Shown here in pieces: positions 39,184 to 64,000 of a stretch of DNA of 64,000 bases. The notes beneath the pieces were generated by a model. That model made no database searches, was not told where the DNA came from, and worked only from the letters and a program-made list of their open reading frames with translations. The position numbers were made by a program, and so were the translations under genes. Within the stretch, counting starts at the first letter, position 1; each line of letters starts with the position of its first letter. Source of the stretch: an uncultured bacterium (lineage in GTDB: Bacteria > Omnitrophota > Omnitrophia > Omnitrophales > Aquincolibacteriaceae); NCBI GenBank assembly GCA_964482725.1, contig CAYZYT010000007.1, positions 19,875 to 83,874 on the forward strand, given 5' to 3'.

Positions 39184-39222
39184 CAACCTGCCAGGTCAAC
39201 CTGCCAGGTCAACCTGCCAGGT
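39184..39222. repeat. 13-bp direct repeat x3 (caacctgccaggt)
   Basis: Three perfect tandem copies between sufS stop and sufU start; followed by tggatgg partially complementary to the unit. Confidence 0.5.
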
Positions 39223-39243
39223 TGGATGGGCCGAGGGGGTCCG

Positions 39244-39699
39244 ATGAGCGGGGATATCCGGGAGCTCTATCAGCAGATGATCATGGACCACAACAAGAAC
39301 CCGAGAAATTTCCGCGGGATGACGGACGCCGACCGGGGCGTGGAGGGCTACAATCCTTTGTGTGGTGACCACTTCAAGGTTTACTTGAAAATGGAAGGGG
39401 ACCGGATCAAAGATATCAGCTTTGACGGGTCAGGCTGTGCGATATCGAAGTCCTCGGCTTCGATGATGACTGCGGCCCTCAAAGGTAAAACGCGCGAGGA
39501 AGCCAAGGCTCTTTTTGAAGAAGTTCACAAGATGCTCTCTCGTGGGATCGGCGAGCCGTTCGATGCGGCGAAGGTCGGAAAGCTTGCGACGCTCGGGGGT
39601 GTGTGTGAATTCCCATCGCGCGTCAAATGCGCTTCGCTGGCGTGGCATGCTATGCTCGAAGCCCTGGAGCCGACGGGGAAGCAAATAACCACAGAATAG
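39244..39699 (+). CDS. sufU: SufU/IscU-like Fe-S scaffold / sulfur acceptor
   Basis: Conserved Cys in NPLCGDHFKV, GSGCAISKSSASMM, KCASLAWHA; ATG 39244 after gagggggt RBS. Confidence 0.8.
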   Translation: MSGDIRELYQQMIMDHNKNPRNFRGMTDADRGVEGYNPLCGDHFKVYLKMEGDRIKDISFDGSGCAISKSSASMMTAALKGKTREEAKALFEEVHKMLSRGIGEPFDAAKVGKLATLGGVCEFPSRVKCASLAWHAMLEALEPTGKQITTE

Positions 39700-39777
39700 A
39701 TAAAATAGGATGGCGGAAGGCGGATGGCGAAAAAACGGTTTTACTCCCTCCTCCATCCGTCATCCTGAAGAGAGCCT

Positions 39778-40397: not shown

Positions 40398-43300
40398 ATG
40401 AATTCAAGTAAGCCTATCAAGTCGTTCATTGCTGCGTTTACAGCCTTCACCTTTTTCTTCACCGGCCTGGGCATTTCACCCAACGCTTTTGCTTCGGGGG
40501 GTGCTTCTCTTGCCCCCGAAGTGTCTCTACCTTATCAGGTTAAGCTGGATCAAAATCTTCGTGTCACCATTCCTCAAGAATTAGGCAAACTCGAAAATTT
40601 TAAAATGGGCCAAGGGCCCGCCATCTTCCATATCCAGGACGCGCACGGTCATTACGAAGGCCAGCAGAAGATCCGCCAACTCCTTGGATTTCTGAGCAAG
40701 ACCTACGGGGTCAATACCGTGCTCGTGGAAGGAAGCGCTTTCCGGCTCAATTCCGAAAAGATCAACTTTTTCCCCAAAGATGTGAAGAAAACGCTTGCCG
40801 TGAATGAAGAGTTTACCCGTCGCGCGTGGGTTTCGGGGGCGGAGCTTTTTCTTTTAGACAGACTACAGACAAGAGACCAGAGACAAGAGACTAAAAATAA
40901 AAATTTAAAACCAGCTTTAGGTCTCCAGTCTCCAGTCTCCAGTCTCTGGTCTGGCGGCGAAGCCGCCGAGGCGCTCGGAATTGAGAATGCGGAGGCGTAT
41001 CGCTCAAACGGCCGGTCGTTCGTGAATGTCCTCACGGAAAAACAAAAGACGGAACAATTCCTCGCGGACATGAATATGCAGATCGAGCGTCTTGCGAGCC
41101 ACTCCCTTAATAAGGAGCTCCGCGACTTTCTCCGTCGGGTCGAAGGTTTCGAAAAGAATCAAGTCCCGCTTGATACCTGGCTTGCCAATCTGAAAACGGA
41201 AGCGGCGAAGAGCCTTGAGATCGATCTCGCGTCACCCGCTCACCAGCTTGATTGGCCGATGCTTGTGCGTATCTACAAGATCCAGGAGCTTTCTTCTAAG
41301 CTGGATCGAAAATCTTTCCCCAACGAGAGGGACGCATTCCTTAAAGCGATTCGGAGATTCCTACCTTCGAGGACTACAGACCCGAGACCCGAGACCCGAG
41401 ACCAAAACCAAGATAAAGTCTCCAGTCTCCAGTCTCCAGTCTCCAGTCAAATCGAAGCGTTGCTTCGTAACGATTCGATGAGTCAGCAGTTGCCGGATCC
41501 GGAGACAGGGTTGCTTTTTGAAGATATGGTCAAGCGCCTTCCGGAAAATTTCAATTATGAGGCGTTCCCGAACGTCCGAAATTTTATCGGAACACTCCTT
41601 CTTCGGAGCGAACTTAAAGCAGATCGCTTGATGAGGGAAGTCCAGAAGCTTTCGGAGACCCTCACCGCCAAATTGATCCGTAATAAGGAAGAACAAAAAC
41701 TCGTCGCGTTGCTCGCCGACCACCGACTGCTGCAGAAGCTCTTTGCGCTGGAGCTTACGCCGGCGGATTATGAAATAATCCGCGGGGAACGGCAAACGGG
41801 CAACGGTGAACGTGAAAACATAGAGCCGTCAGAAATCATTCGCCGATTTAGCGAATTCGTTCCCCGTTCCACGTTCCCCGTTTCCCGGGTGAAGTCCGTC
41901 CAATTCTCCCATGTTGCTGAATTGGATCATCTATTCGATGCAGCCATGAAGTTCTACTCCGGCGTCAAAGCCCGCGACGGAATGATGGAAACGAGAATCG
42001 AGGAACGCCTGAAAGAGACCGGCGCGACCAAGGTCGCCGTGATCACCGGCGGTTTCCACAGCCAGCCGATGCAGGATCACTTCATTAATAAAGGATATTC
42101 CTACGCGCTTATCACTCCCAAGCTCTCCGGGGCTGACGAAACGGGCCGCGACGGTTATCTCCAAGCCGCGCTTGCGAGCATTCTCCCGGCGCAAAACACG
42201 TACAAAAATCCCTTCATTTTTACGACGGCCAATCCTGCGGGTGACGGCGCGTCGCTCGCCGGCGTCAAAACGGCCGTGACGGATGTCCTGCAGAAACTAG
42301 TGGCTGGCGGTGCTCTTTCGAGTGCGGACGCCAGGGGCGTGACGCGTAAATTGGCGGGAAAAGCAGACCAGACCACAGACCAGAGACCACATACTGCAGC
42401 CAATGCTTTAAGTCTCCAGTCTCCAGTCTCCAGTCTCAAGTCCGACGTGGGCCGCTCCGAAGCGCGGATGGATCTTCGCGGCGATGCTGAAGAGATGCTG
42501 AAAAGTCTTAAGGTCAAGCCCGGCACGGACGGAGCTTCGGTGACATTTACTTTTGAAGGTGAGTTTCCGGACAAACCGAGCCCGATGTCCGTGACGTCGG
42601 CTGCGGAACTTTTTGATCTCTTTCAAAAGTTACAGGAATTCGGGATCCTGCCTTCTGATCCTGATGTGTTGATGCTCATCGGTCCCGGGGAAGTGGTGGA
42701 GGCGGAGGAGGGGCACACTATTACGATCAAGCCCGACCAGTGCATGGTGGTTTTTAAAGGAGGGACTGAGGCCACGGTCATCCAATGGCAGGATGCCTAT
42801 GGCATCAAGCAGGTCCTGCAAAAGATCATTTTGTGGTTGGGGGCTTCTTCTGGTCCCAAGGTCACTGTAAAACTTAGATCCGCCGCTGCCGCGCCGGCCA
42901 TTCCCGTCGCAGCACCCACCGTCGGAGCCAACAAACTTCAGCTCAAAAAAGAGGTTCCTTCGCTCAAGAACCTTTCGCCATTCAAAAATCTATTCGGAGG
43001 TCTGAAATCGCTCGGAGAAGCGCAGATCATTTCAGAAGCCCCCGTTGCAATTCGAGATGCCGCGAGGATTCTTGGGACTTTATCCCAGAAGTTTTCGTTC
43101 ACGGCTCTTGGGTTCGTCGAAGCTTCAGGGAATCTCGCCGATCCTTCCAAGGTTGCGTGGCTGCCGACCCTGGGGAATCCATCGGCAGGAGAATTGATGC
43201 AGAATCTGAGCGTTACTGCCTCCGGCGGGAACGCGGATGCTCTTTGTGACGTTGTCATCGCACCTTATAACGGAGAACGATTTGGTTCGCAATCCGGCAA

Positions 43301-46300
43301 CATGCTTTTTCTTCTCCCGCAGCGCTCCGAGGTCCGTCTGGAAAATGCCGGGCCGGTGAAGGATCTGGAGGCGATCAAAAAAGAGATCCGGTCAGCTTTG
43401 GAGGCAAATGATGCCGCCCACACGTTCAAACTTTTCGGGATCACGCTTCTCGCCGGGACTCACGTCGCGGATTTCGACGCGCGAGTGGCTCAAATGGATT
43501 CTTCGCATCTGGCCGCGTGGCTTGACGCTATTTTGCCGGTTCTTGAAAAGGTGGCGTCAAAGGTTGTGGTGCACGTTGGGTACGATGACCATGGCTCAGG
43601 GAACGCGGATGTAAAGCTTTGGATAGCTCTAATGAGTCTGAAAACCCAACTTAATAAAGCGAGGGCGGCCGAAGCGCCTCTGGCGCAAGGGACAAAAACC
43701 GCTCCAGCAGCTACCGCCGTACGCTCGGAAGCGCGGGCAAAGAAGGTTGGGGTTGTTGTTTCCGTGCGGATCGCGGTTGATCTTACGAAATATGACCGCA
43801 GAACCTTGGTCCGGGATGTTGCACTCCGGGAAATTGAAGAAAAAGTTGGCGCCAGGGCCGCGGATGATTATTTGTGGCGTGTGAGATTTTATTTCAACAA
43901 TGATGGCAGTAATGACGTTCGAGAGTTGAGGACTTTCGTTTCGTTGAACGCTTTGAAAGAATGGCTGAGACCATCAAGACGTACGAGATCAAATCTTACG
44001 ACGCTTGATATCGAAGGACTACCAAGCATCTATGCGCCTGCCGTCCGCTCTGAAGGGCGTGGGCCGCAGGAATGGATGCAAGAGGTCGACGCACTGACAG
44101 AACAGTTTTCTCAAAAATTTCAAGAGTCTCAGGCTTCCGGATCCGCGGAATTAGCGTCGCTGGAAGACCGGCTTGAGGATATCGAAAAAATTCAAGGGAG
44201 AATGAGAGTTCTTTCCCTGGTGATCCCGAGAGAGGTTGTGGCGATCGAGAGAAGAATGAAAGGCGAGCCTTCCAAAGAAGATTTCTCTGCGGGACTTGCG
44301 GCGCAGCGCCCATCGCTTCGCGATATGACTCGCGAAATGGAAGCGCTTTACGAAAAAGCGATTGCTCTCAACAGTGTCGAGACAGATTCCGTGAACCGGT
44401 TTCCGATCGCCCCTGTTTCCGTGGCCGGGCATTTCGTCTTCTTGGGTGGGCCCCTGGGGAGCTTGTATACGGCACTCAATAACGCCCGTGCGGAAGTGCG
44501 GACACAGGAAACCCATTACCGGAACACGACCGCGGAAGGGAAGATGCTCGAGATCGTTCAGAAAGCGGCGGGAAGTGAAATTCTTTTGGATGGAGCCAAT
44601 GTTGGGGATTGGAAACGGAATCCCGGCCTCAACGATGGCAACGACAGGATCGTTTTCGGGGACTTGCAGGTTGAAGATCATAATGTCACTGTTTTATTCG
44701 ATCCCTCAGCTATGGCGGAAGGCAAACAGCCTTGGCTTGTGTCTGTAGATGGGGATGACCACGCGGAAATGACGGCGCCGGTGGTGAATGCCGTTCAGGC
44801 TTTTATCAAACAGTCGATCGTGTCCGTGGAAACCTCTCAAGTCGCGGCTCCGGCCATCGAAAAAGAACAGCCGGTGGCGCCTGCCGTCGTGACCCCTGCG
44901 GTAGAAAAAATTGCAGCGGCTGTTTCTGCTGTGCCGGTGGCGCCGCGGGTTTCTGGGCGTATCAGTTTGCCGAAAGAAGTGAGACCTGTGGGCAGCCCGG
45001 TGGCGAGTATCAAGCTGGGCGCTGCGTTAAAACAATTTGAGGCCGAAAGCGCTGCTGCCGCAAATGATCCTAAAGCCGTAGAAACGCGGCGTCTTGCAGC
45101 GGAAGTTGCGGCAAAGGCAAAGAACGCGCAGATGCTAATCGGCAAAAGCGGCGGTGCTCAAAAACCGGCGCAAATACGCCGGGGCGGATTGATCGACAGA
45201 CTTCCCGGGTTGCCGGAGCGCGAACAGGCCCGGAATGTATGGCCGGCATTTGAAAATTTTTATACGAGACTTCTCGCCGAAGGTCAGGCGGAGGCATTAC
45301 TCAAGCTCCTGAAGGAAACGGAACAATATACGAAGACACGGACCCGCGCGACTTTTATCGCTGCGGGGATCGCGGCGGTTGTGATCTCGCTTTCGTGGCT
45401 TATCACGGGCGTCGGAGTGGTGACCATGATGGCGTCGTTTGTGTGCGGCGCCGGAGTTCTCGGAACGGTCTGGTTCTTCAATAATAATGTTCCCGATCTT
45501 TTGCGTTTGACCGGTAGTGGTGTGGTGGCGTTGGTGCCACTCTTCCAGAAGGCGGTTGACGACGTCAAAGCGAGGGAAGCCAAGCTCGCGGGCCGTGGGC
45601 CCCAGCCGGCAGCCAAGGGCACGGAAAAAGATGAAGAATCGGGTTCGTTCGGCAAACAGCTTTCAGATCTGGCCGCCCAGGCAACCGATGCGAAAGTTTG
45701 GGACAAAGGTGTGATCATCCCGAAACTTGCGGAAGTCATTGCCGGTGTTCCGGAGTTGACCGGTACGCAAATGCCGGTCCAAACGACGCTTGGGAAAACC
45801 CAGCCCGAAAAAACTCCGAATGGCATGATATCCAAGGGAACTCAAGGCCGTTCGGAGGTTAGGGCGAATACGGTTCCAGCCGCATCGGAAGAAGCCCTGC
45901 GGAATGAATTACAACAGATAGAAAGACAATTAGAACAGATCCAGGACCGGCAGGTTCAAGGGGAGGACGTCGGCTTGGCACGCGAAGATGTTCTCGCCCT
46001 TCAAGGACAGCGCGCAGCGATCCTGGAAAGTTTGGGGCTTACCACTCGTTCCGAAGTTCGGCTGTCGCCCGTTCAAGAACGGAAATTCCAGCAGGCGTTG
46101 CGGGATCTTCAGGCGAAGTGGTGGGACGGGAGCTTCAATGATCATGGCGCGGGACGCAAAATTGCTGCCGCCATCCTTCTTGGCGAGCTCAAAGATCCCC
46201 GGGCCGTTCCGGCATTGACGGAAGTTTTAACGGATGAATACGAAAAAGTACGTCGCGCCGCGGCCTCAGCGATCGAGTTGATCAATAATAATACTGAAGT

Positions 46301-49300
46301 GCTGAACAATGAACTCCGGAGGATCGAGCAGGCGCTGGGTCAGATCCAGGACCGGCAGGTTTTGGGTGAGGATATCGGCTGGGCACGAGAGGATGTTCTG
46401 GCGCTCGAAGGTCAGCGTGCCGTGATCCTAGAACAATTGGAACAGGCAAATCGTTCGGAAACGCGGAGAGGGCAAGAAGTTTTGCCCAAGATCGATCCTA
46501 CAAAAACGATCGCCTGGAGAGAACTCAAGGAACTCTCATCTCTGATGCAGAGGGAAGCAATATCCATGAGAGGTATGTTCGAGGCGGATCCGAATCGTTT
46601 CGATAAGTATTCCGTCCGGTTGGGCGATGATTTTCTTCTGGATTATTCGAAGAATCGGATCGACGGGCATGTTATGGCGGCGCTCATGAATCTTGCGGGG
46701 CAGACACGTTTGCAGGACGCGATCGAGTTGATGTTCACGGGCGCGAAGATCAACGAAACTGAAAACCGAGCGGTGCTCCATACCGCGCTCCGGGCTCCGG
46801 CAGATGCGGTGATCGAAGTGGACGGGATGAACGTTGTGCCGGACGTGCATCAAGTGCTTCAGCGGATGAAGAAATTCACGGACGATGTCCGTTCGGGCGA
46901 ATGGAAGAGTTACACCGGCAAGCGTATCAAGAATATCGTCAATATCGGAATCGGCGGTTCGGACCTCGGCCCGGTGATGGCCTACGAAGCGCTCAAGAGT
47001 TACAGCGACCGGGATCTGACGGTCCGTTTCATTTCAAACGTCGATGCCACGGACTTTGCGGAAAAGACCCGCGATCTCAAACCGGAAGAAACACTTTTCA
47101 TTATTGCCTCCAAGACGTTTACGACACAAGAGACCATGACGAATGCCGGAACGGCTAAGGCCTGGTTTCTGAAGAGCGGCGCGAAAGAGGAAGATGTCGC
47201 GAAGCATTTTGTGGCGGTTTCCACGGCAAAGGAGCTCGTCAAAAAATTCGGGATCGATACGGCGAATATGTTCGAGTTCTGGGACTGGGTCGGCGGTCGC
47301 TATTCCGTGTGGTCTGCGGTCGGTCTCCCGCTTATGTGCGCGATCGGTTATGAAAATTTCCGTGAGTTTCTGGACGGTGCTCATGAAATGGACCGTCATT
47401 TCCGGACCGCGCCTTTCAATCAAAATATTCCCGTGATCCTCGCGCTCCTCGGGATCTGGTACAACAATTTCTTTGGCGCCCAGTCGCAGGCGATCCTGCC
47501 TTACGATCAATACCTTAACCGTTTTGCGGCTTATTTCCAGCAGGGCGATATGGAGTCGAACGGAAAGAGTGCCGGCCGCGACGGCAAGCCCGTCACGCAT
47601 CAAACCGGTCCGATCCTTTGGGGCGAACCCGGGACGAACGGCCAGCACGCCTTCTATCAATTGATCCACCAGGGGACGAAATTGATCCCGGCCGACTTCA
47701 TCGGTTTCGCGAATTCCCTGAACCCGATCGGAGATCACCCCGAAAAACTCGCAGCCAATCTTTTTGCCCAGACCCAGGCGCTGGCGTTCGGTAAAACAGC
47801 TGACGAGGCGCGCGCGGATCTTGTTGCGGAAAATGTGAAAAAGAAAGCGAAGGGTGAAAAAGAATTAACTGCCGAAGAGATCGAAAGTCTCATTCCTTTC
47901 AAAGTATTCGAAGGCAATAAACCGACCAATACGATCCTTGTCAACCAACTGACGCCGCGGACGCTCGGGGTGCTTGTCGCGATGTATGAGCACAAGATCT
48001 TCGTGCAGGGCGTGATCTGGAATATCTACAGTTTTGATCAATGGGGGGTCGAACTTGGTAAAGCGCTGGCGAGCGGGATCCTGCCGCAGCTTGCTCCGAG
48101 CGCCGAAGTGAAAGGGCAAGATAGTTCAACCTCCGGGCTGATCGGTGTTTGGAAGAAAATGAGCGGTCGTTCTGAACTCCGTGGGATCATCGCTTTGCGT
48201 CATCGGCTGAAGAGCCTCGTGATGGTTTCTGCGGCGGCGGGGATGATGGGTTTTTCCGGATGCGCGACTCATAATGTCGGGACGCAGGCGCCCAGGTCCT
48301 ATCCGCCCGCCCCTAGTTATGATTATCGGCCCTTATATAAAAAGCCGATTTTGCCAAAGACCCAAGTTCCTAAATTTAATTTCAAACAGAATGCCAATCC
48401 GCCCGCTTTTCGGCCCCTAAGGCCCGTCGCCCCCATGCCGAAGATGCCCGCGGCGCGTTATCGTTCGGAGACGAGAGATTTAGAGCTGGAGAGACTTCTT
48501 GCAGCAAGAAAGGAAGTGCAGGATGTTGCGCGTGAGCAGCTTTCCAATCCCAAATTGATCGAAGCGCTGAAAAAACGAGCCGCACGGGAAGGAAAGGTTT
48601 TTCAGGTACCCTCCATGTCGCGCCGTTCTGAACTGCGAGGCAATGTTGAAACCCGGGATCCGGATCTTGAGAGATTGATCGCGGCAAGGAAGGCCGTGCA
48701 GGATACTGCGCGTGAGCAGCTTTCAAATCCAAAATTGATCGAAGCCTTGAAACAAAGAGCCCTTCGAAAAGGAATTGTTTTTTCGGAGCCTGTCTTTTCT
48801 GCAGTTCTGATCATCGGACTAGGGTTGGGCGCAGTCTCAGCGGCGCTCGCTCAGGCGAGTGTTACAAATGAAAACGCCGCCCTGACCCACCGGCCGAATT
48901 GGGCCGAATTCATGGCCACCTCGGATAGAAGTGATGTTGCGACGACGTTGGTGAAGTTTACCCGTGCCGGCGAAGAATGGGCTCGAAAACGCGGCAAGAC
49001 AGTGGACTATACGCCGGCATTTTTGGAAACGATGAAAGAAAAGATCAGAAAAGGGGAGATTCGCGACTCCCAGGAACTCTACAACCTGGTCATTCGCTGG
49101 GTCGAGCACAACGCCGTTCCCTCGGGCAAAGCCACTCGATCGACACGTACAGGTGCCGCAAGCAGCACGGAAGAGCGCAGCGAACTTCTCACTGCCCCTG
49201 AAAAAGGAACTGCAGAAAGTGCTGAGAGTGGCGGCGAAGCCAACACCGTGCGTGCCGAGATCCGGAATGTGGATGAATTTACGGGTAAGTTGCTCGAAGA

Positions 49301-52300: not shown

Positions 52301-55300
52301 AACGACTTCCCGTGAGATGGGCTGGTTCGCAGATGAATTCCTGCGGATCAAGGGTTCGGATCTTTTTGATACGGATGGATACCGGGACTTCCTCGCAAAA
52401 GGGGATGAAAAGGGAAAGCCTTACGACGAAACCGGAATGCCGCGCCTTCAATTCTATATGAAGGAATACTACGGCAAACGGCATATCGACATGAGCGAAG
52501 GATCTCTCATCGCGACCGTGACGGCCAAACCCGAAGGAAAGGGCGGTGCTGTGGGGCGTACGCCGGCGACCGGCCTTGGTCTTTATTATGTGACGCGGGA
52601 TGCGCTGAAGATCTACGGGGATCGCCTCGGGATCGGTGCGAGTGTCGCGCAGCAAAGAATCGCCGTCGAAGCGTACGGGAATGTCGGAAGTTACGCCGCG
52701 CGGAGCTTTTTTGATAACGGCGCCAAGGTCATGGCGATCAAAGAATTTATCGGGAGGCCGGTTGCAGTTGTCGCCACAACGGATCGCGGTATGGATCTGA
52801 ACAAACTCGACAAGCATCTGGCCGAAAAGAACGCGGACGGCACATCGAAGAAGAACACGGTCCTGACTTATGTGGAAGCGCATCCTGAGGACGCGCGCCT
52901 GGCTACGATCGAGGGGTTCTGGTCAAGCGACGTTACGGTCCTCGCCCTTTGCGCCAAAGAGAAAACGGTCAATAAAGAGATCGCCGCGCTTATCAAGGCA
53001 AAGATCATTTCGGAAGGGGCCAACGGGCCGCTTGAGAACGACGGATCCGAACAGATCCTTCTGGATAAAGGCGCGATCATTCTTCCGGACGTTGCCACCA
53101 ACGACGGCGGCGTGGCATTCTCCTCCCTCGAGTGGCGGGCGAATAATATCGGCGAATCATGGCCGGAGGTCGCGGGGAACGGTCTGATGGAAGACAAAGT
53201 CGTAAGTGCCTTCTATGATATTTCCAGGGTCTCCGAATCCCAGAAGATCACGCTCCGTGAAGCGGCCTACCAGATCGCGATCAGCAAGATCGTGGACGCG
53301 ATGCTCGCGGCGGATCCCGAACTGGGGAATCTTTTTGATGAAACACATCCCGCTTATGTGATGGATGCCGGGGCGAAGCGCTGGCGGCCGGAGACCTGGC
53401 AGGAGCTTCGTCAGATCGATTCGCGGAAGGCGAAGGCCGCTCTGATCGATCGGGCCGACGAGGTCATGAATAAAAAGATCGATGAGATCGTTTCGGAAGC
53501 GCTCCGTGACCTTCCCTCAAAACGGGGCAGTGTGATCCTGATCGGCGGCCCGAGGGCTGCCGGGAAACCCATGCTGGGTGCGAACATGTTGGCGAAACTT
53601 CGTGCCCGGGGGCTCAAGGCCAGCATTCTTGATATGGATAATCAAAGGATGGATGATCTGACCAACGTTCTCCGGGGAAAGAAAGTTCCTGTTCTTCTCG
53701 AGGACGGGTCGCGGGACGGGGATCTCCAACTCGGCACAGATGAAATATTGATCGTGAATGGCTATTACGCTTTGGGCGACGAGATCCTCCGGAGGATCCA
53801 TGCCATCCAAGGAAAAGCATTCCCCCTCATTGCTTACAGCTCCCCGGACATTCTTCTTTCTAATAACTGGGCGCTGACGGCTTACGATGTCCGGCTGATG
53901 CGCGATACTCTGAGCGGCCTTGTGGTGGGGGAAGAAATGAGTGTCCAGGAAGTGATCCGCCGGTGGCAGCTCCAGCGCGTTTCGGAAACGGAAGCTGTCT
54001 TTGCGACCTGGAAGAACGCCAAGCGTGCGATCAACACCTATTTACCTTACGAATTACCTTTCCTGAAATCCCTGGTGGGGCCGCTCATCAAGATCGCGAT
54101 CGCCCAGGAATCCCGGGAACCCGGGGATGACGGGTATACGCTGAATGTCCTGCGTCATCTCGACAGCCTCTTGCGCAATGTCGAAGGCTGGGACGTTTCC
54201 CTGTTGGAAGGTCATCATGATTCCGTATTGTGGGAATACGTCCAGCGCTATGTACCGAATGGCACGACCGGGGTTCGTTCCGAATTGCGCGGCGGGGCCG
54301 ACCTGACCCGCGAAGCGAAGCTCGAGCAGTATTCCTGGAAGTTCCTCGGCCATGTTTGGGGCGTGACATTGTCGGGATTGGCTTTCGCGGCCGGAATATT
54401 TTACGCGGCCGAAGCTTTGGGATACCTCTCGGTGGCGGGACAAATTTTCTCCGAATTGTGGGCCGCTGGATGGGTTTTGGGTTATTCCATGATCATGGCC
54501 CTCGTCGGTGGGTTCGGCGTTTCTTATTTTATCCGGTTGTATCAAGAAACAAAATCCGGGGCGCTCGCGGAACTGGCACAGGAAAGACTTGCGGCGGATC
54601 TGGAAAGTGTGAAGGACCGGATTACGAAGGAACTTTCCCGCTATCCTTCGATCCCGCAGCGTTTCACAGCAGGATTTCAGGCTGTCCGTAATGACTTATC
54701 TCAAGCGGATCAGGTCATCAGCTATCTCGAAGCCTTGGTGGGGGATCTTACGACCTACGGAGAAAAACATCCTTCGGACGCAAAGGACGCCTGGGCCACC
54801 TGTGATGTCCTCGACAGGATCGCCGAAGAACTTTCTTTTTATCCGGATTCTTCGCGCTCGGAAATCCGGTCGAAGGAAGACTTTGCAGCCTTCGTAGATA
54901 AGTTTTTGAAACGTTCGGAAATCGTCAAAGAACTTGATGGTGTGGAACTTACGCTTCGTGCCATCAAAGAAATGGCGCAGGAAGCCATTCCGGACGACAA
55001 GATGACTCGTGTTGTGAGCGATGTGATGCTCCGGGCGGCAAAACAGGATGGATTGAAGCAGCCGCTTATTCATAAGGGTTTGAAAAATGCCTATCCCAGG
55101 AACTCCCAGCGCGGAAAACGGGTCATGGCAGAGACCCTTGCCGAAGCCTTTTCGGTCGCTCTTTCAGGCAATGATCCGTACGATGTCCGGGAAGCTCTGA
55201 CGGTTTTCCGGCGGGCGCTCACGGCCTATTCGAAGGAAACGGGCAGTTTTTCAAGTGGACAACAAGAAGCGGCAAAGACCTTGGCTGCGCAGCTGGGGAT

Positions 55301-58300
55301 CAAGTGGGACCGGATCCGAAGCCATGGGCTTTTGGCTTTTGATATGCAGAAAACACTTGTCGAGCGCAAAGAGATCCTGACCGATGGGTTGAGGGATGGT
55401 CTTATATGGTTGCTCTCGGAAGGGGTTCCTGTCGTAGTCATTTCGGCCAATTCGCGCGAAGAGATCTGGCAACAACTTATGGAGCCGATTCTCAAAGAAC
55501 TCCGCGCCCGGAATAAACTCTCTGTCATCGAAAATATGCTTGTCTATGCCAATAGCGGGACGTCGAAGTACTGGGTCGACAGTATGGGCGAGCGGCACTT
55601 GGATGTTGGGTTCAGTAAACAGTTCATGATCGGGCAAGAGGTCGAGCGGGCGATTCAGGAGGGGCTTAAAGATCTAGCCGTGAGGGGATTTTTTATCCCC
55701 CCAGCGGAGTGGCCTGCTTTCCGGGATCTTTATGAGAGGGATAAAGTTAAAGATGGCCTGGAAACGGAATTTCAGTTCCCCTGGATGGGAAAAAATATTT
55801 CACGAAGTGCTTATGAACCTTCCATCGTCCAGCGTTTAAAAAATGAAAAGATCGTCCAGGCCCCTTATATCATCCGCCGTGGACTTTTGGAAGGGGACGG
55901 GGATCAGCGCGGGACCGCGCTTGCGATCCGGCAGTTCTTGCCCGGCCAGCGGGAAAAAGCATGGCATTCCTTGGAGGAATTGTTACCGGCACGTTTGGGC
56001 GCTTTGGCGTCACAGTTCGCACTGCGCGGGGGAGGGGTATCGACGATCGATCTCTCCAATAAAAACGCGAATAAGGCCATGGCTTTTCGCGATGCCGTTG
56101 GATTTTTTCAGAAAAAGGGTCGCCGGGTGGACTTCCATGATGTTGTCTACCACGGGGATGAGGTTTGGAGGGGTTCCGAGGGAACCGCGGCGAAGAACCG
56201 CGGGAACGACATGATCATGCTCGAAAATGATTTTGACGGAGATCCGGGATACAAAAAATTTCAAGTGGTAGCTTTTAATCCGAATCCTCCCGAGGGGCTT
56301 TCTGCCGAGTACCAGACCCGCACCTCCTACATCGGGGGGGAGCAGCGCGGTGTGGAACTTTATCTTGGGTTGCTGAAGCAATCGGTTGAAAACCTCCGCG
56401 AGAGGAGCGGCGAAGCGGTTCCCGTACGCTCCGAGGTAAGGGGATTTGTGGCGCTCGCGGAAAATGCGCTCAAGAAGCGTTGGATCAGTGAAGCGGCTCT
56501 TGCCAATATCCGTTCATGGTCCGGGCCGGAATATGCCCGTGTGCATGGCCAGTTGGATGAAGAATTAAAAGCGGCGGGACAGGATCCGAAGGCTTGGTCG
56601 AAGATAAACGACGCGTGGTACACGAAGGTTGCGGTTGGTACGGCCGGAATGCGCGGAACCCTGGGGCTTGGGACGAACCGGATCAGTGAATACACCCTCG
56701 GTTCGCTTATGATGGCCCATGCGCTTTCCGTGAACGATCCCGCTTATACGCAGATCATTGAAGAAAATTATCCGGAGTTTCGTGCGAAGGATCTCCATCG
56801 CGCGGTCGTGATCGGCGGGGATTCTCGCTATGGTTCCTATGATGCTCAAACGAAAAAACCGGGCCGCCACATCAAACTCGAAGCGCTTATCAATGTGGCG
56901 TTGGGTATCAAAGCCTATGTGTTCAAGAGTCCCGCCTCTACGCCCCAGTTGGCATGGGCCGTTCATGAACTCGACGTTGAGCCCACGGACCTGCTTGTTT
57001 CGGGCTCCATGAATACTGCCAGCCATAATCCGCTTACCGATAACGGGAATAAACCCTACAAGATCGACGGGTCGCAGTCTACCGGGGTATTTTCGGAGCT
57101 TATGGCGAAAAACCTTTCGAATGCCGGCGTTACCGCTCTGAATGCCCTCACCTATGATGGCTTGAGCGTTCTGGAGAATGTGGACGAGGCTTTTGCGCGC
57201 GCCGTGGCCAAGGGCGATATCCGCTGGGTCGGCGGGACGGACGATGATTCCTATGCGAAGGATGCGTACCATGCGGATGAGCTCTTCGTTCAGCGCGAGC
57301 TTCAGGAAGCTATCCATACGATCAACGGGATTTTTGATAACGCAAAGATCGATCTTGGAAATTCCAGGATCGTGATTTCGCCGCTTTTTGGCGTGTCACG
57401 GCACATCCTGAAAAAGATCATTAAAGCTCGCGGCCTGAGCGAAGACCAGATTGTTTGGGTCGAGGATGAACCCAATCCCGATTTCCCAGGAGTGAAAGGC
57501 GGCAAGCCGAATCCCGAGGAACCGAAGGCGCGCCTGGCCGCTCTCCGCAAAGCCGTAGAAGTGAATGCCGACCTTGTGCTTTGGACCGATCCGGACGCCG
57601 ATCGTCCCGCGGTCGCTGCCAAGAAAGATCTGACAAAGAAAGCTGTTTCGACTGACGATTACGTTTCATTTAACGGCAACCAGCAGCTGGCGATCCTGAT
57701 CGATTATCTTGTCCGCGAGCTGAAGTCGCTTGCGGCGGGGCACTCCCTGGCCGATGACGAAACGCGGACTCATCTGGCGCGCCAGGCCGCCGTGATCATG
57801 TCCAATATAGGGAAAACGTTCGCAGCATTCAGTCTTGTTTCGGCCGACCTTCCGAAGATGATCGCGCGAAATGCCGGGATGGAAGTCGTGGGAACACTGG
57901 TCGGCTTCAAATATATCGGCGACCAGATCGAGCTTCGTTCCAAAATGATCCAGAAGCTTGCCGGGATCACCGAGACCGAGTGGCAGGGTCTGAGCAATTC
58001 ACGGAAGCTCGAATTGGGACTTCAGTATTCCCAGGCCTTTATCTTCGGCGGTGAGGAGTCGCTTGGCGCTCTTTCAAGCGACGGGCCGCATGACAAGGAT
58101 GCGCTCGCGGGAGTGATGTGGTTTGTTGAGATCATGGGCCGTCTCCGGAAGGACGGACTTACGTTGAATGATCGCCTGACGGAAATTTATAAGACGTACA
58201 GCTATTTCTCCGAGCGCTTTCCGATGCTCGAAAAAGGCAAGACTTATGCCGGGGTTGATCTTAGCGAAGACGAGGCCACTCAGGTCATTAAGGCCGAGAA

Positions 58301-61300
58301 GGGCCCGAGTATCATGAATTTCTTTCGTGCGACGCCGCCCCGTGCCATCGCGGGCAAGAAAGTCATTGCGATCCTCGATATGCTGGCTCAGACCGCAAAG
58401 GATGTAGACGGGAATCTTCTCTTTGATGCGGATCATCCAGGCGGTTTAGTGACGCCTCAAACAGCCGGGATACCGGAATCATTTCGGAGTGCATTGTCCC
58501 AGATCCAAGTACCGGCGACGATTCATCCGGCAAACAAACATCTTTTGCGGGGGATCTATTCTTTCCGGCACAAGCCGGTTCCGGGTTCGTCGGGTGCAGG
58601 GGAAGCGCTTCCCAGGGAAGCTTTCATCCGCCTACTGCTTGAGGACGGCTCGATCGTGACGCCGCGGCCTTCCGGGACGGAGCCGAAGCTGAAATTTTAT
58701 ATTCTGGGGCGCGGTCTTTATGAAAATAAAGCTGCGGTGGATGCCTGGGTCGAAGCCGCGTCAAAAGAGCTCGATGCGATCGGCGACGGGGTCGCCAAGC
58801 AGCGTTTTCCTGAAAGATTTACGGCGCGGGCAGAAACGAGCTCAACCCTGAGCCTGAAACGCTCAGGACTTCGCGGGAAATTCGACGCACTCATGGAGAT
58901 GAATATTTCGTCGCTTGACGATACGCGGGATCCCACCATGAAGCAACTTTGGAATGCCGTGCGGAAAGCCATGAATCGGGATGAAAGTGTCCGGCGGAAT
59001 ATTGCGGATGCGAACACGGCTAACGATAGCGTCAGTGCCGCCAAGGCAACGGAGCAGATCTCTCGGGCCATGGACATGGCCTTGGACGCGCAGAAGGCGG
59101 CAGCGGTTCAGGAAGGAAAACGCGTTTTCGGGGATAGGAGCACTGTTGCGAGTATGGCCGCAGTGGTAGCGATCGCACCTTTTGTGATGTCGCCGGTTCT
59201 TGCCGTGATGGTCGAGATCTTGGGAATTTACTCTTTGGTGGACTTGCTCTCGACCGGTTCCCTCAGGTGGAAGCGGAAAGGGTTAAGCTTGAACGATGTC
59301 GAATACTATAAACCTTTGATCCGGCTCGCGTTCGAACGGACGGAGAGCCAGATCATCGCTGAAGCTACGGAGAAGGCTGCGCGTAGCGAGATTCGGGACG
59401 GCGCTGCGGAACCGGCGAAAACCACCGTTTCTTCTGAACCGGCCGTCCAACCTGCTGAAAAAGTGGTAGCGCCGGTGGTCGAAAAAACTCCGGAAGAGAA
59501 GAAGCCCGCGGTTGTTGCGGCGCCTGTTGCGGCGAGCGAACAAAATGCTGTTTCAGGCAATTTACCCTACCTCGTAGCCGCAATCACCGGATTGACTATC
59601 CTTGGGGCGCTTGCCGCCGTCGCCTTGTATGCACTTGAAGGCGAATCGACCCATGACAAGTTCGTGAAGATTTCTGTGGCGGTAGTTTGTGCGTTGGTCG
59701 GTGCAGGTGGGATTTTTGCGGTGCTATTCGGGGTTGCTTCCTTGGATTTTATGAGGAGCTCTCGTGGAAATTCTTCTAGGAGTCCGCTCGAGCTTGCAGA
59801 GAGTGAATCCCTACGATTGATCAAGAAAGTGGAATCCAAGATCCGGCCTGAACAAAATCGGCTTGAGGCTATCACAAAGCATGCGATGACAGAAGCGGCC
59901 GCCGCAGGAGATAAAAAGAAGCAGCCGGTCGTGGAATCGAGCGAAACGCTGCAGTTGCGTGCCAAGGTTGAGGCCCAGGAAGAAGTAGCAAGACAGATGA
60001 GGTCAATCGCAGAGGAATACAAACAGTTTGAAATTTTGAGCTCGCGGGCCGTCAAAAAGCAGCAGCCTCAGATCGATGCTGTGACTCAGAAGATCCGGGC
60101 GCTCTATGAGCCGTGGGCTGCCGAAGAGGCCAAGAAGGTGAGTGCCGCTGCTGCCAAGCGATCCGAAATCCGTCAAACCTCTTCATCGGATCCGGAAGCG
60201 ATCCAGGCCTTGGTTGAAAGGATCGGGGATCTTGAAAGCCGTTATGAAAAACTGAAAAGCCAGAGCGGGCATGCGGCCCAGCGCGAAGTCCGTCGAGTTA
60301 AAAGAGAGCTGGATCAGGCGAGGGCAAGTCTTGAACGGACGGAATCATCCGTTGGTCGCTCCGAGGTTCGCCAGGATGATGAAAAAGAGCTTCGGGAACT
60401 GCGTTCCCGATGGGATGAGCTTATGCAGAGCAAGGTGCATACCTGGAGAGTTGCGGCAGAGCTTAGTCAGGTCCAGGCAAAGATCTCCGCGATCCTGGAT
60501 TCTCAAAAGGCCAAAGTCAAGCAGGTCATCGATCTTGAGATCGTTCCGGAGTTGATGAAAAGAATCTCGGACATGGAAATGGCGGTTCGAAAACAAAGGC
60601 TGGATGAATCGACGACGCTTGAAGTGATAAGTCTCTTGGGGACACGGGTCGAAAGGGTCTATGCGGCGATAGCTCCCGTGGCCGTTTCCCGTGGTTTGGA
60701 TCCCTTGGGCATGTTGCGGTTCTTTTATGGGATGGCCCCGACCCACGAAGATCCGAATAAGAAATTCATGGATATTTACAAGGCGTTTTTTATGGGAGAT
60801 CGAGAAAAGATCAATGCTCTGAGCTTTCAAATCGTCGGCTTACCCATCAGGGATATGGATACAGCCCGTGAGATTTTTGGAGAGAAATTCTCGCCGTGGA
60901 TCGCTGCCTTGCTCGAGTTGCCCAAGGACATTTTTGAGCGCAAGTTCGTTCAACAGACGAGTGAAGGATCTAAGGAGCTCGACGGCCGGATCGTCGCCCT
61001 GGCAAATTTTCTGCAGCACATGACCGCCTTTTATCAGGGGAGCCACCGGGAGGCGCTTCTTGCGGAAGCTGGGATGCTTTTGACCGCATGGGACGGCTGG
61101 GCCAATCCCTCCAGGGTCATTCCCGTGGCGCCTCAGACACTTCAGGTTGGGGGGCTTCAGGTCATCCAACATTCCTATTACAGATCGCCGGGCGTTACCA
61201 TAGACAACAAGCCGGTCTCTCAGGCAAATAAGCGGGCGGAGATTCGCGCAGAAGTGCTCGCCGCAACCACTTCTCTTCCGTTGAGCCGTGAAGTTGTGGT

Positions 61301-63173
61301 GGGCGTCGACATGGAAGAAAGGTCGTATGCGGTTCTTCCGGTGAAGTTCGATCTTCCCTCCGATCAGGTGATGGCGAATCTGTCTCAGACATTGCCTCTT
61401 GAGGCAAGGCCGCTTGCCTTTACCAAGAACCCGCAAGTGCTCTTTAAATCTTCCGGGATGCGGGGGGTGTGGAGTTCGGTGGCGGGTCTTCTTTTTGAAA
61501 ATACTCGAGCTGATCAGAAAACAAAACTGCTGGTTCTTTTTCCCGAGGAGACTGAAGAAAAGATTCGCGTATCCCTGCCGCCGGAATTCTTGAGGGGTGT
61601 AACCCTCGTGGCGCATTCGGCTTTCGCTAAACTGGCCGGGATCGAAGACCGCGGGGCAAGAGGAAAGTTCGCGCGGATCACGATCGCGCTGCGGTCCGAA
61701 AACAGGGCGCTGCCTGCGCCCGAGATCAAATGGTCCGCTGATGAGCTTGAGGGATTCTCACCCAACGTCACTGAACAGCACAAGGCTGCTGAAGCGATCA
61801 AATATTGGACGCCAAAGTTTTACATCTCCGGTGCCCCCGATGTGGAAACAGCCCGGATGGCCCTGGAAAGATTGGACAACGCTCGCTACGAGCGCCAGCT
61901 CTTGCTTGCCGCACATCTTTTGAAGGCCATGGCTTTGGAGAAGATCGGGCCCAGTATCAATCAACTTAATGACGGAGATCTGTCCAAAGTGATGATCGTT
62001 CTCGAGGACGCTCTGAAAGAGGGGACCCGTCGGCAGCTTCTTCAGAGAAAGGGCGAGGGATGGGGTTCCTATGATCAATTGGAACTATTGGCCAAGAGTC
62101 CGGCTTATCTTAAATCGGTTTTAAGAAAACTCAGTGAAGTCTACGCCCGTGATACGCAAGGGAAGGGCTTTGCGTCGAGAGCTGAAGCCCGCTTTGTTCC
62201 GGAGGCTGTTTTAAAATCGCAAACCATGGTGTCGGTGCCGGTCACCGTGACGGATGCTGACCGCGGCATGGCGACTTTCAATGAAGTGCGACAGATCTAC
62301 ACGGACGTGACATACGATGAGACGGCGGTTGAAAAGGTCACGCGCTGGTTCCGGGCCGGGATATTGCCTCTCAGAGTGGCTTTATCGGTTTCCTACACCA
62401 AAGCGCTTGCGCTTCTGGAACGCCTTGGCATTCGGCGGGAAGAAGTCTTGAAACTCGCGGATCGTCTGACGCCGGAAGATATGAATCTGCTTGAAACGAT
62501 CAGTGCTCGGAGTTTGGCGACCTTCCAGGATCAGATCGGAAAGACCCTTGCCGGTGGGGCCGTGTTTATGGACGCTGAAGGACTTATCAGTTTTGCCCGA
62601 AATGACAGTGTCGGTTTTTATAATATGCTGAATGAACTTGCCACTGAGAAAAAATCGGATGCTTCGGCTCAAAAACCTCTTTTGACCGCAGGCGATGCCG
62701 GGACGGCCGGGCGAATCGTTCAGTGGCTGCTCAATAAGAATTCAGGCCTTACGCTGGAGAAAGCGCAGATCCTAAATCTGTTGGATCAGGTCCTTGAGAT
62801 TGCGCCTGTAAAAGAGAATCAAACTGTCACGATTAACGAACTCGCTGCCGCAAGGTTGGGCGGCATGGTTTCGGTTCTTTCTTCGCAGGATATGCTCGCG
62901 GGTCTTAACGGGGGCGCTAATTTTGCTTTTAAAGATCGTTTGGCCAAGGAAAACGTGAAACTTGTGTTGCGGTCGCTTCTCGGGAGGATGAGGGCGCTGG
63001 CGGCTCAACTCGAGGGTGCTTCCGCGATCGACCGAGTGAAGCTCCTTGAGGAGTTCAACACGCGTCGTGTGGGCGGTCTCAAGAACGCCCAGGGAGGATT
63101 TGTTTTTGATAATATCCTCTTGCTTGCCCAAAGTTTTCTTGCCCAGGAGAAAGCTATCGCGAAGTCCGCGTAA
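40398..63173 (+). CDS. giant 7,591-aa multi-module protein: signal peptide, internal TM segments, HEAT repeats, and intact PGI, GDH, P-loop kinase-like, HAD-IIB-like and phosphoglucomutase modules separated by recurrent RSE[VILAT]R motifs
   Basis: Single uninterrupted frame of 22,776 nt with uniform codon usage; canonical catalytic motifs of three enzyme families in the same frame (see module features); N-terminal signal peptide [16 protein letters not shown]. Confidence 0.8.
45880..46465 (+). other. HEAT/PBS-lyase-like repeat region with a tandem internal duplication (giant ORF module)
   Basis: [32 protein letters not shown]; duplicated segment shares identical 21-mer cagatccaggaccggcaggtt at 45939 and 46341. 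Confidence 0.55.
46466..48166 (+). other. glucose-6-phosphate isomerase module (giant ORF)
   Basis: [56 protein letters not shown] - catalytic His/Lys/Glu context conserved; bounded by RSETR (46451) and RSELR (48167). Confidence 0.8.
51739..53330 (+). other. Glu/Leu/Phe/Val dehydrogenase (GDH-like) module (giant ORF)
   Basis: YKGGIRF (catalytic Lys), [14 protein letters not shown], Rossmann [10 protein letters not shown]; begins right after RSEIR (51724). Confidence 0.8.
53500..54000 (+). other. P-loop NTPase, uridine-kinase/PRK-like module with atypical Walker A (giant ORF)
   Basis: [27 protein letters not shown]...ILDMD; Walker A ends GKP rather than GK[ST]. Confidence 0.45.
55320..56240 (+). 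other. HAD-IIB (Cof/SPP/MPGP-like) phosphatase-fold module with non-canonical motif I (giant ORF)
   Basis: motif [11 protein letters not shown] (DxQxT instead of DxDxT), motif [13 protein letters not shown]; lies between RSEIR (54852) and RSEVR (56426). Confidence 0.5.
56600..58800 (+). other. alpha-D-phosphohexomutase (phosphoglucomutase/phosphomannomutase) module (giant ORF)
   Basis: GTAGMRG, catalytic Ser loop TASHNP, metal loop DPDADR, sugar loop GGEESLG, phosphate loop [10 protein letters not shown]; follows RSEVR (56426). Confidence 0.8.
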
Positions 63174-63331: not shown

Positions 63332-64000
63332 ATGTTTCCATCCGTCAGAGAACAACTCGAGGTTTTTAAAGAGAATCTTGTCGAGCTTATTTCCGAGCGT
63401 GAGCTGACGGCGAAACTGGAAGTCTCCTTCAAGAATAAATGTCCTCTTCGCATCAAATACGGAGCCGACCCGTCGGCGCCAGATCTTCATCTCGGCCATA
63501 CCGTTCCTCTCCGCAAGCTGCGTAGCCTTCAGGACTTAGGGCATACCGTTGTTTTTATCATTGGCGATTTTACGGCACGCATTGGGGATCCTTCCGGGAA
63601 ATCCGAGACTCGGCCGATGCTTTCCGAAGAACAGGTCCAGGCGAATGCCAAGACCTATCAGGAGCAGGTGTTTCGCATTCTCGATAAAAAGAAGACCGAG
63701 GTCCGCTACAATTCCGAATGGCTGGGGACGATGAGTTCCGCAGATTTTCTAAAACTTACGGCCCAATACACGGTGGCGCGGATCCTCGAGCGTGACGATT
63801 TTTCAAAGCGCTACAAGGCGGGGGAGCCCATCGCGATCGTGGAACTCCTTTATCCGTTGATGCAGGGGCATGATTCGGTGGAGATCGAGTCGGATGTCGA
63901 GATCGGTGGCACCGACCAGAAGTTCAATCTGCTGGTGGGGCGCGAACTGCAAAGGATTGACGGACAGGAGCCGCAGATCGTGATGACATTGCCTCTGATT
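63332..64000 (+). CDS. tyrS: tyrosine--tRNA ligase (3'-truncated by window end)
   Basis: HIGH motif PDLHLGH, class I TyrRS N-terminal domain; ORF runs off the window. Confidence 0.85.

Follow-up and report, generated by a model that had tools for sequence, protein, structure and literature searches.

An RSExR-punctuated, 7,591-residue multi-enzyme protein of an uncultured Omnitrophota bacterium as a candidate polyprotein

Why are complete enzymes of central metabolism encoded in one uninterrupted reading frame, and does the product act as one protein or as many? The question was raised by a stretch of 64,000 nucleotides (here called the window) from an uncultured Omnitrophota bacterium (GenBank assembly GCA_964482725.1, contig CAYZYT010000007.1, positions 19,875 to 83,874), which holds an open reading frame (ORF) of 7,591 amino acids (aa). 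An original prediction had described this giant ORF as glucose-6-phosphate isomerase (PGI), glutamate dehydrogenase-family (GDH) and phosphoglucomutase (PGM) enzymes fused into one exported protein. The analysis reported here found that the pentapeptide R-S-E-x-R (RSExR) punctuates the junctions of full-length modules, so that fusion is not the best reading and a polyprotein or cassette layout is preferred. Whether the RSExR sites are cleaved, which would make the giant a polyprotein, is in our judgment just short of an even call.

Complete enzyme modules and the motif between them

The claim of a single intact frame was borne out by the ORF listing and by the translation, in which the only stop is the terminal one. 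GC content and GC skew were uniform along the whole ORF, and a Logan contig independently linked the upstream SUF genes with its first 1 kb. Reassignment of a stop codon was rejected, since the neighbouring genes end with standard stops. In Pfam searches, PGI was found over the full length of its profile (PF00342, aa 2082-2582, profile positions 1-486, E 5e-228, 758 bits), followed by ELFV_dehydrog_N at aa 3852-3981 (E 1e-36) and ELFV_dehydrog at aa ~4049-4304 (E 4e-42). PGM_PMM domains I, II and III (PF02878, PF02879 and PF02880) scored above threshold and domain IV (PF00408) below it (17.9 vs 23.1 bits), the four spanning aa ~5463-6105, and HEAT_2 was found at aa 1921-1964 (E 8e-7). One copy of each enzyme family was present (PGI, ELFV N and C, PGM_PMM I-III, HEAT) and none was dominant. 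The catalytic motifs were likewise found as single copies: GQHAFYQ (aa 2415), YEHKIF (aa 2530) and a further signature string (aa 2183) in PGI; YKGGIRF (aa 3885) and the K-containing GGGKGG (aa 3919) in the dehydrogenase; and TASHNP (aa 5540), DPDADR (aa 5731), GEESLG (aa 5885) and RPSGTEP (aa 6090) in the PGM/PMM loops.

Much of the original prediction thus stood. All nine strings that it quoted were present once, and the profile search that it proposed recovered the three enzyme modules with their catalytic motifs. HEAT repeats, a Sec signal peptide and internal transmembrane (TM) clusters were confirmed by HEAT_2 and by several internal hydrophobic segments besides the signal-peptide-like one at the N-terminus. 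The separate gdhA gene exists as described, the embedded GDH being a divergent paralog with 28% identity to it, and a P-loop kinase-like region (aa ~4357-4425) received weak support from an NCBIfam nucleoside/nucleotide kinase family (E 4.5e-7). A predicted HAD-IIB-like module (aa 4825-5343) found no support: that region gave no match in Pfam (E <= 0.01), NCBIfam (E <= 0.05) or PDB sequences (E <= 0.1), and no BLAST match among 180 family proteins. A PDB sequence-profile search with aa 4305-5344 was also without a significant match. The prediction had the ORF and the enzymes right; it overlooked that RSExR punctuates the chain, that a conserved module stands at either end and how large the family is.

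The RSExR motif occurred 24 times in the giant ORF; 0.17 copies are expected, and none of 2,000 shuffles gave more than 3. When the alanine variant was counted as well (R-[S/A]-E-x-R) the total was 28 sites, and three degenerate copies (RSELL, RSEVQ and RSGLR) stood at module junctions. The enrichment was seen in the giant's reading frame only and in no other frame or gene of the window, and the codons at the sites varied freely (TCC, TCG, TCT, TCA and AGC for serine; CGN and AGR for arginine). Across 179 sites from ten Omnitrophota giants, only R, S/A, E and R were fixed, and position 4 favored V, L, A and I. In ortholog alignments across the sites, the fixed positions were 86-88% identical compared to 31-38% for the 24 flanking residues. 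Over 1,024 sites the flanks were linker-like, with bulky hydrophobic residues depleted and small or polar residues enriched (P ~1e-56). A strongly hydrophobic segment followed the motif at 13 of the 179 sites, about twofold more often than at random positions (5.7 ± 2.3).

The motif was located between modules only, 0-9 aa from the native enzyme termini. A test of its position with BLAST blocks was dropped as confounded, since close orthologs align straight across conserved linkers, and position was judged instead against Pfam boundaries. In this protein and two divergent homologs, none of 56 motifs lay inside Pfam enzyme domains, compared to 12.9 expected; two nominal in-domain motifs stood at the first residues of a permuted TIM match. 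An RSETR lies 8 aa ahead of the canonical PGI N-terminus (5-8 aa in every lineage) and an RSELR 8 aa past the natural C-terminus, and the same bracketing was found in every homolog, whatever the motif variant. The distance between motifs corresponded to module size (median 160 aa, interquartile range 102-345), and in one relative (P0013; individual family proteins are labeled P00xx and their loci L00x) successive ACP units of 80 aa were each exactly bracketed.

Outside this locus, the top unbiased five-residue pattern was RSE.R, RAE.R, R.ELR or a specific instance of these in ~65 of the 119 family members that reach 1,500 aa or more. Their median motif density was 1.82 per 1,000 aa compared to 0.048 expected, and 26 of the 119 were without the motif. 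These findings show, as judged from substitution and placement, that selection on RSExR acts on the protein. Neither in Pfam nor in NCBIfam was a model found for the motif or the end modules.

The segments that the motif delimits behave as cassettes. Orthologous modules in P0001 were motif-bounded within 0-9 residues at matching relative positions, and module order differed between relatives, PGI beginning at aa 2024 here and at aa 987 in P0001. The dehydrogenase and kinase-like parts form one module, since no motif separates them in this protein, P0001, P0040 or P0064, and this cassette looks like a genuine bifunctional fusion. Two cassettes start with lipobox signal peptides immediately past a motif. 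When 97 motif-rich proteins were split into 1,055 modules and clustered, the cargo was highly variable, with 559 singletons. The cargo here comprises PGI, GDH-kinase, PGM, HEAT repeats, two lipoprotein precursors, several membrane proteins and many modules without assignment. Apparent circular permutations were observed in two relatives: Enolase_C precedes Enolase_N at aa 2809-3300 of P0007 (locus L003), and at aa ~2474-2780 of P0012 (locus L005) the TIM match starts from profile position 43 right after a motif, with the beta-1 'AANWK' strand at the end of the module.

Two end modules and a very large protein family

Every complete relative was found to begin with a signal peptide followed by an N-domain of ~520 aa marked by [IVLF]x[IVL]Q[DES]xH and, ~400 aa later, GG[FY]H. 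An alignment of ten divergent members gave Q80, H83, E111, Y520, R526 and G551-G552-x-H554 (GGFH) as invariant. The AlphaFold model of this N-module (predicted local distance difference test, pLDDT, 74.6; predicted template modelling score, pTM, 0.68) shows a predicted hydrolase fold of the Tiki/EreA/ChaN/TraB type, a fold family that takes in the MARTX effector endopeptidase RRSP and the type III effector HopBA1. Sequence profiles were less responsive: the best PF04187 score was 19.7 bits (cut-off 27.7), with a match in three of the ten members, and no NCBIfam or PDB sequence match was obtained. Active sites of TIKI/Ere enzymes have a pattern of His, Glu, Arg and GxxH, to which the invariant H83, E111, R526 and GGFH may correspond. 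The H...E...R...GxxH-like constellation of the N-module is thus a possible counterpart of that in the Tiki/TraB/PrgY/EreA/ChaN superfamily, and the extracytoplasmic location of TIKI, PrgY and ChaN is predicted for it. Unlike that superfamily, it has a helical insertion of ~250 residues, always stands first in a very long protein, and matches no curated model at threshold.

An exhaustive profile search with the N-module returned 9,843 clusters at 50% identity (E <= 1e-3), 6,902 of them at E <= 1e-30. In 149 of the 150 best matches the domain began no later than residue ~95, in proteins of up to 7,823 aa. Among the 97 motif-rich proteins the N-module was present in 96, always first, and was the sole universal module; C-modules were the only other recurrent class and were always last. 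The C-terminal tail ends in [KR]SA in Omnitrophota and in [RS]AA in Endomicrobiaceae. SA, AA or MA termini were found in 90 of 148 family proteins, the others probably being cut by contig ends. A typical C-module was modeled with moderate confidence (pLDDT 61) as a small Rossmann-like alpha/beta core followed by a long terminal helix; Foldseek gave generic Rossmann-like matches, none at E <= 1e-3, and a PDB sequence-profile search nothing significant. The idea that the [KR]SA tail is a half-motif co-varying with RSE vs RAE was rejected (Fisher P = 0.25), SA vs AA tracking phylogeny only. The layout of Sec signal peptide and N-domain, variable cargo cassettes and C-module is close to certain.

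Tandem 7-nucleotide repeats of the form (AGACxxx)n ... (GTCTCCx)n were observed in the window. They fold as ladder hairpins in which 5-bp GAGAC/GUCUC helices are separated by 2x2 internal loops (z scores -3 to -6.4). Three in-frame copies lie in low-confidence loops of the N-module and encode TRDQ.. and LQSPVSSL peptides; P0001 is without them, and P0003, P0010 and P0012 carry similar peptide inserts at the same loops.

A metagenome search for orthologous architectures, as the original prediction had proposed, was made with aa 2020-6329 and gave 31 bacterial proteins of 2,400-7,500 aa, all with PGI among other enzymes. They came from Candidatus Omnitrophota and Endomicrobiaceae metagenome-assembled genomes (MAGs) in four independent sources (NCBI, JGI, ENA and Logan), with more than 30 independent assemblies represented. 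The co-embedded enzymes were PGM, PGK, GAPDH, TIM, enolase, aldolase and PFK, and further FBPase, transaldolase, adenylate kinase and UDP-glucose pyrophosphorylase. With the N-module as query four genomic loci were found, the closest in Omnitrophota MAGs at 67% and 37% identity. Homologs carry the NCBI names Candidatus Omnitrophica or Omnitrophota, and a profile search through a word index gave only seven partial 'hypothetical' proteins. West-Roberts et al. 2023 (bioRxiv 10.1101/2023.11.21.568195) described glucose-phosphate isomerase, PGM/PMM, TIM, FBPase and aldolase domains in Omnitrophota giants (Archaeovorin-type), and Nielsen & Lui 2026 (bioRxiv 10.64898/2026.06.07.730766) list 'multi-enzyme metabolic clusters' as one of three Omnitrophota giant classes. 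The claim that the architecture had not been described is refuted by these two preprints. From the homologs, both preprints and the Omnitrophota nearest loci, the giant ORF is a medium-sized example of an already known protein type. These findings show that it belongs to a very large modular family of Omnitrophota with relatives in Endomicrobiaceae.

No earlier description of the motif, the end modules, the cassette behavior or the breadth of the family (two phyla, ~10^4 clusters) was found in the two giant-protein preprints, in full-text literature searches or in Pfam and NCBIfam, and one elsewhere is possible.

In two other genomes, long paralogs lie side by side, and each is equipped with a signal peptide, an N-module, RSExR sites and a tail of its own, which indicates that the end modules are needed in cis and that genomes hold several such giant genes. 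Directly downstream of P0007 (L003 23051-30631) is a punctuated paralog of 2,526 aa with PPDK_N and PEP-utilizer domains, and directly downstream of P0012 (L005 13520-23193) a paralog of more than 3,224 aa with methyltransferase, glucosamine-isomerase and response-regulator domains. The Endomicrobiaceae proteins (P0014-P0031) are multi-enzyme proteins of 3-5.5 kaa (PGI, PGM, PGK, adenylate kinase, NUDIX and UDPGP) in which the N-module and an AIL[RS]AA tail are present and neither RSExR nor another strong short motif was found; a recurring segment of ~25 aa, 'A[IV]..E.P....KF[VI]..H', adjoins their TM regions. An Omnitrophota relative (L009) has one motif, after the N-module, and then more than 3,200 unpunctuated residues. 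Other short strings seem to stand at the junctions of further long multi-enzyme proteins that contain PGI: 'SSPV' in P0008 (2,829 aa, NCBI 'Candidatus Omnitrophica'; 6 copies vs 0.03 expected), which has a differing N-terminus and no H.Q..H motif, and, by eye, 'G.R[LM]A'-like strings in P0011 and 'DGG'-like strings in P0002, the latter without Tiki-like N-module motifs. Such strings hint at lineage-specific punctuation.

Cleavage of the giant protein and its alternatives

Because RSExR is strict, short and located in linkers, it would be the recognition site of one macromolecule, most likely a site-specific endopeptidase. The giant would then be cut at ~30 RSExR sites into ~30 separate products. 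Two features expected of a polyprotein were found here, namely several complete units (PGI, GDH and PGM) and a short motif at their junctions and not in their interiors. The native termini kept in the cassettes would also argue for processing into separate proteins. The soluble PGI, GDH-kinase and PGM would remain in the cytoplasm and act with the glycogen phosphorylase encoded upstream, from glycogen to Glc-1-P, by PGM to Glc-6-P and by PGI to Fru-6-P; PGM and PGI fit the upstream glycogen genes, which provide a pathway context of Glc-1-P supply. The envelope would be the destination of cassettes that open with a lipoprotein signal or signal anchor of their own. Positive charges were found N-terminal of the internal TM or signal segments at aa 1651, 2604 and 2799, which fits independent entry of each cassette into the membrane from the cytoplasm. 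The leading candidate for the processing enzyme is the N-module, since it is the only protease-type fold universal in cis, and a cytoplasmic protease acting in trans has about the same likelihood, since the N-module bears a signal peptide.

Several observations weigh against processing of this kind. The proposal of cleavage comes from the sequence. With its conserved Sec signal peptide, the N-module, the candidate cis-protease, should be exported, and the charges around the internal TM and lipoprotein segments suggest membrane entry from the cytoplasmic side, opposite the exported N-module. Its Tiki-type fold is no proof of protease activity, since the superfamily also has esterases and a haem-binding protein. 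The end modules are independent of the motif, since the Endomicrobiaceae proteins keep both without RSExR and L009 has a single motif ahead of its long unpunctuated stretch. No conserved protease gene was found beside the giants, whose neighbors were housekeeping genes and paralogous giants. The alternation of TM orientation, assessed with a crude TM caller, was 0.79 within modules and 0.58 across motifs, a trend in the direction predicted for independent insertion that did not reach significance (P = 0.17).

The giant may instead stay uncleaved, as an 830-kDa membrane-anchored array of tethered enzymes, an intact 'beads on a string' metabolon in which RSExR serves as a docking site for one of the end modules, a hand-off signal to a chaperone or insertase, or a modification site. 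Stable multi-enzyme fusions such as AROM, CAD and Thermotoga PGK-TIM are well known. The bookended multi-enzyme design of Endomicrobiaceae demonstrates that the architecture exists without RSExR, a single continuous topology remained compatible with the TM-alternation test, and both preprints view giants as membrane-associated (by DeepTMHMM mostly TM proteins, or signal peptide plus TM). However, a continuous topology would place PGI and PGM outside and GDH inside, which is odd for sugar-phosphate and NAD(P)H enzymes. Lipobox signals right behind motifs are best explained if the N-terminus there is free or independent, the cassettes retain native termini rather than being tightly fused domains, and structural linkers normally need no pentapeptide as strict as this one. 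An uncleaved array is the main rival of cleavage and is considered the less likely of the two. A giant that is exported like a MARTX toxin, its cassettes being freed in the periplasm, or on or inside a host or prey cell, by the N-terminal Tiki-like domain, is a good deal less probable. It would account for the Sec signal peptide and hydrolase-fold module at the start of every member, and the fold family contains RRSP and HopBA1. Cassette shuffling among relatives resembles that of MARTX effectors, and Omnitrophota are reported to be predatory or episymbiotic, with giants linked to prey contact (bioRxiv 10.1101/2023.11.21.568195). The cargo, however, is mostly of the housekeeping and not of the toxin type (PGI, PGM, PGK, GAPDH, TIM, enolase, aldolase, PFK and adenylate kinase) and suits the producer's own glycogen pathway, for which a phosphorylase gene lies upstream. 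By its positive-inside charges, the signal peptide after PGI has its PGI-proximal side in the cytoplasm, and neither RTX/GD-rich repeats nor a C80 cysteine protease was found in the giant ORF in Pfam searches (E <= 0.01).

The motif could also be the by-product of a signal in nucleic acid, such as an internal RNase processing site or a site of translation re-initiation that yields sub-messages or separate polypeptides. The consensus CGN-TCN-GAR-NNN-MGN does retain ~9 fixed bases, and structured heptamer hairpins lie in the 5' 2 kb of the gene. However, synonymous serine and arginine codons vary freely, the RAE variants alter the DNA yet retain a small residue, no start codon or Shine-Dalgarno pattern follows the motif, and the drift between lineages from RSE.R to RAE.R and R.ELR is as expected for recognition of a protein. 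Such a signal is therefore very improbable. Skipping of the 2A type was rejected, since RSExR has neither Pro nor Gly. Least probable of all is an artefact, either a chimeric assembly or separate genes run together through errors of sequencing or assembly. The sequence is of metagenomic origin, and the independent contigs for this exact locus are short. However, 22.8 kb are free of stops in one frame with uniform composition, the neighboring genes have normal stops, the end modules are conserved at both ends, and the same organization recurs in dozens of homologs from independent assemblies, long contigs and NCBI MAGs among them. Even taken together, a nucleic-acid signal and an artefact are highly improbable.

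Cleavage at RSExR is thus the reading preferred for this giant. The wider proposal, that much of the central metabolism and envelope proteome of Omnitrophota is made as true polyproteins cut at RSExR by the N-module or a trans-acting endopeptidase, is put forward tentatively, its chances being somewhat below even. If it is true, a virus-like expression strategy serves housekeeping functions in ~10,000 protein clusters, and RSExR is the long-sought cut map for the giant proteins of the phylum. If cleavage holds, this would be the first polyprotein strategy for cellular central metabolism. RSExR is a testable rule that splits giants into units of native size (median as given above). The authors describing the giants state that missing cleavage points hinder the prediction of structure and function (West-Roberts et al. 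2023, bioRxiv 10.1101/2023.11.21.568195). The signal peptide with the N-module is a simple marker for such proteins, which are annotated only as 'hypothetical'. We also speculate that gene-level annotation may mis-score embedded glycolytic steps in metabolic reconstructions of Omnitrophota and Endomicrobiaceae, since no more than 67 of 176 complete genomes were scored as having PGI.

Neighborhood of the giant gene and comparison with known systems

The features of the window are given in Table 1. The ORF open at the 5' end of the window is outside the punctuated family, since it has no RSExR and no SA tail, and may be the end of another long protein. A perfect 13-nucleotide tandem repeat (CAACCTGCCAGGT x3, 39 nucleotides) was observed in frame at the 5' end of the NifU-like gene (39184-39222). 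The tyrosyl-tRNA synthetase gene downstream of the giant is also found after the giant pair at the P0007 locus (L003 30984-32198), which suggests conserved synteny of the two.

Table 1. Features of the window, with nucleotide positions in the window and residue positions in the giant ORF (for motifs, the first residue).
Feature	Nucleotides	Strand	Residues	Remarks
ORF open at window 5' end	1-1931	+		at least 643 aa; Pfam IF-2 and FecR; low-complexity acidic stretches
Heptamer elements, intergenic	1937-2021, 6814-6845, 36507-36567, 37856-37882, 39708-39729			at gene 3' ends
Alpha-amylase-family protein	2094-3569			upstream of giant
Glycogen phosphorylase	4015-6579			upstream of giant; PF00343, 1,108 bits
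Sensor histidine kinase	8559-13295	+		1,578 aa; PocR and ~eight PAS domains
GAF-ANTAR regulator	13797-14555			follows histidine kinase, just upstream of gdhA
Standalone gdhA	14929-16293
NifU-like gene	39172-39699
Giant ORF	40398..63173	+	1-7591	7,591 aa and stop; ATG start; single terminal stop
Sec-type signal peptide	40398..40496	+	1-33	K-rich n-region, hydrophobic core, AFA/SGG cleavage site; also in homologs
N-terminal module	40497..42452	+	34-685	Tiki/EreA/ChaN/TraB-superfamily fold (predicted)
Ladder hairpin element 1	40867..40946	+		in frame; AGACAAG repeats ... GTCTCCA repeats; z -5.0
Ladder hairpin element 2	41378..41448	+		in frame; z -6.4
Further heptamer element	41858-41887			inside giant ORF
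Ladder hairpin element 3	42369..42442	+		in frame; z -3.2
RSEAR	42453..42467	+	686	closes N-module
RSEVR	43323..43337	+	976
RSEAR	43722..43736	+	1109
RSEGR	44046..44060	+	1217
RAEVR	44487..44501	+	1364	variant
Module with TM hairpin (~1651-1695)	44502..45848	+	1369-1817	positive charges N-flanking
RSEVR	45849..45863	+	1818
RSEVR	46047..46061	+	1884
HEAT-repeat module	46062..46451	+	1889-2018	Pfam HEAT_2
RSETR	46452..46466	+	2019	ahead of PGI
PGI module, full-length	46467..48167	+	2024-2590	P0001 ortholog motif-flanked at 0 and 1 aa
RSELR	48168..48182	+	2591	after PGI
Lipoprotein-type signal peptide and Pro-rich peptide	48183..48461	+	2596-2688	lipobox, cleavage before C
RSETR	48462..48476	+	2689
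RSELR	48624..48638	+	2743
Single-TM module (2799-2817)	48639..49175	+	2748-2926	positive flank before TM
RSELL	49176..49190	+	2927	degenerate
RAEIR	49251..49265	+	2952	variant
RSENR	49482..49496	+	3029
RSEAR	49701..49715	+	3102
Second lipoprotein-type signal peptide and Pro-rich peptide	49716..49994	+	3107-3199	RSEAR-LYKK...AVIGVSG/C
RSEVR	49995..50009	+	3200
RSEVQ	50313..50327	+	3306	degenerate
RSEVR	50517..50531	+	3374
RSEVR	50820..50834	+	3475
RSELR	51336..51350	+	3647
RSEIR	51726..51740	+	3777
ELFV dehydrogenase and P-loop kinase-like module	51741..54275	+	3782-4626	dehydrogenase 3852-4304; kinase-like ~4357-4425; GGPRAAGK 4383
RSELR	54276..54290	+	4627
Module with TM segments (~4653, 4687)	54291..54854	+	4632-4819
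RSEIR	54855..54869	+	4820
Module without library match	54870..56426	+	4825-5343	predicted earlier as HAD-like
RSEVR	56427..56441	+	5344
PGM/PMM module	56442..58859	+	5349-6154	Pfam and loop motifs
RSGLR	58860..58874	+	6155	degenerate; RSEVR at homologous place in P0001
One-TM module (~6255)	58875..59381	+	6160-6328	P0001 ortholog motif-flanked at 4 and 6 aa
RSEIR	59382..59396	+	6329
Two-TM module (~6392, 6427)	59397..60158	+	6334-6587
RSEIR	60159..60173	+	6588
RSEVR	60357..60371	+	6654
RAEIR	61233..61247	+	6946	variant
RSENR	61692..61706	+	7099
RAEAR	62178..62192	+	7261	variant; just ahead of C-terminal module
C-terminal module	62193..63170	+	7266-7591	[KR]SA-type tail
Tyrosyl-tRNA synthetase gene	~63332-64000	+		downstream of giant

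Like this ORF, the catalogued Omnitrophota giants come from the same phylum and consist of unrelated enzyme Pfams tiling one very long polypeptide with a signal peptide or TM segments. Post-translational cleavage has already been suggested for them, one preprint calling the cleavage points unknown. The 7,591 aa found here compare with catalogue cut-offs of 10,000 (Nielsen & Lui) and 30,000 (West-Roberts), which are survey limits and not biological ones. In the giant preprints no junction motif, conserved C-terminal tail or Tiki-like N-module is reported, the N-terminal regions being said to 'generally lack identifiable domains'. C39 or S8 peptidase domains are proposed there as processing enzymes, and neither was found in this ORF in Pfam searches.

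MARTX toxins are likewise very long, secreted, modular proteins in which conserved ends surround shuffled cargo and the linkers between cassettes are cut site-specifically, as is predicted here. In contrast to their host-directed effectors, InsP6 (inositol hexakisphosphate)-activated C80 protease cutting after Leu, RTX-type ends and type I secretion, the giant has housekeeping cargo, the RSExR motif and a Sec signal peptide, with no C80 or RTX domain found. Bacterial precursors cut after Arg or Lys at domain junctions are known from RgpA, Kgp and HagA of Porphyromonas gingivalis; these comprise protease and adhesin domains that re-associate on the surface, and have no metabolic enzymes, strict pentapeptide or end modules such as those described here. 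In viral polyproteins of the picorna-, flavi- and nidovirus type, one ORF yields many mature proteins, which are released at short junction motifs by a protease of the same polypeptide. Compared to these, cleavage of the giant is predicted and its protease is a candidate only, and the ORF lies on a cellular chromosome, where it joins tens of metabolic enzymes and envelope proteins in one reading frame.

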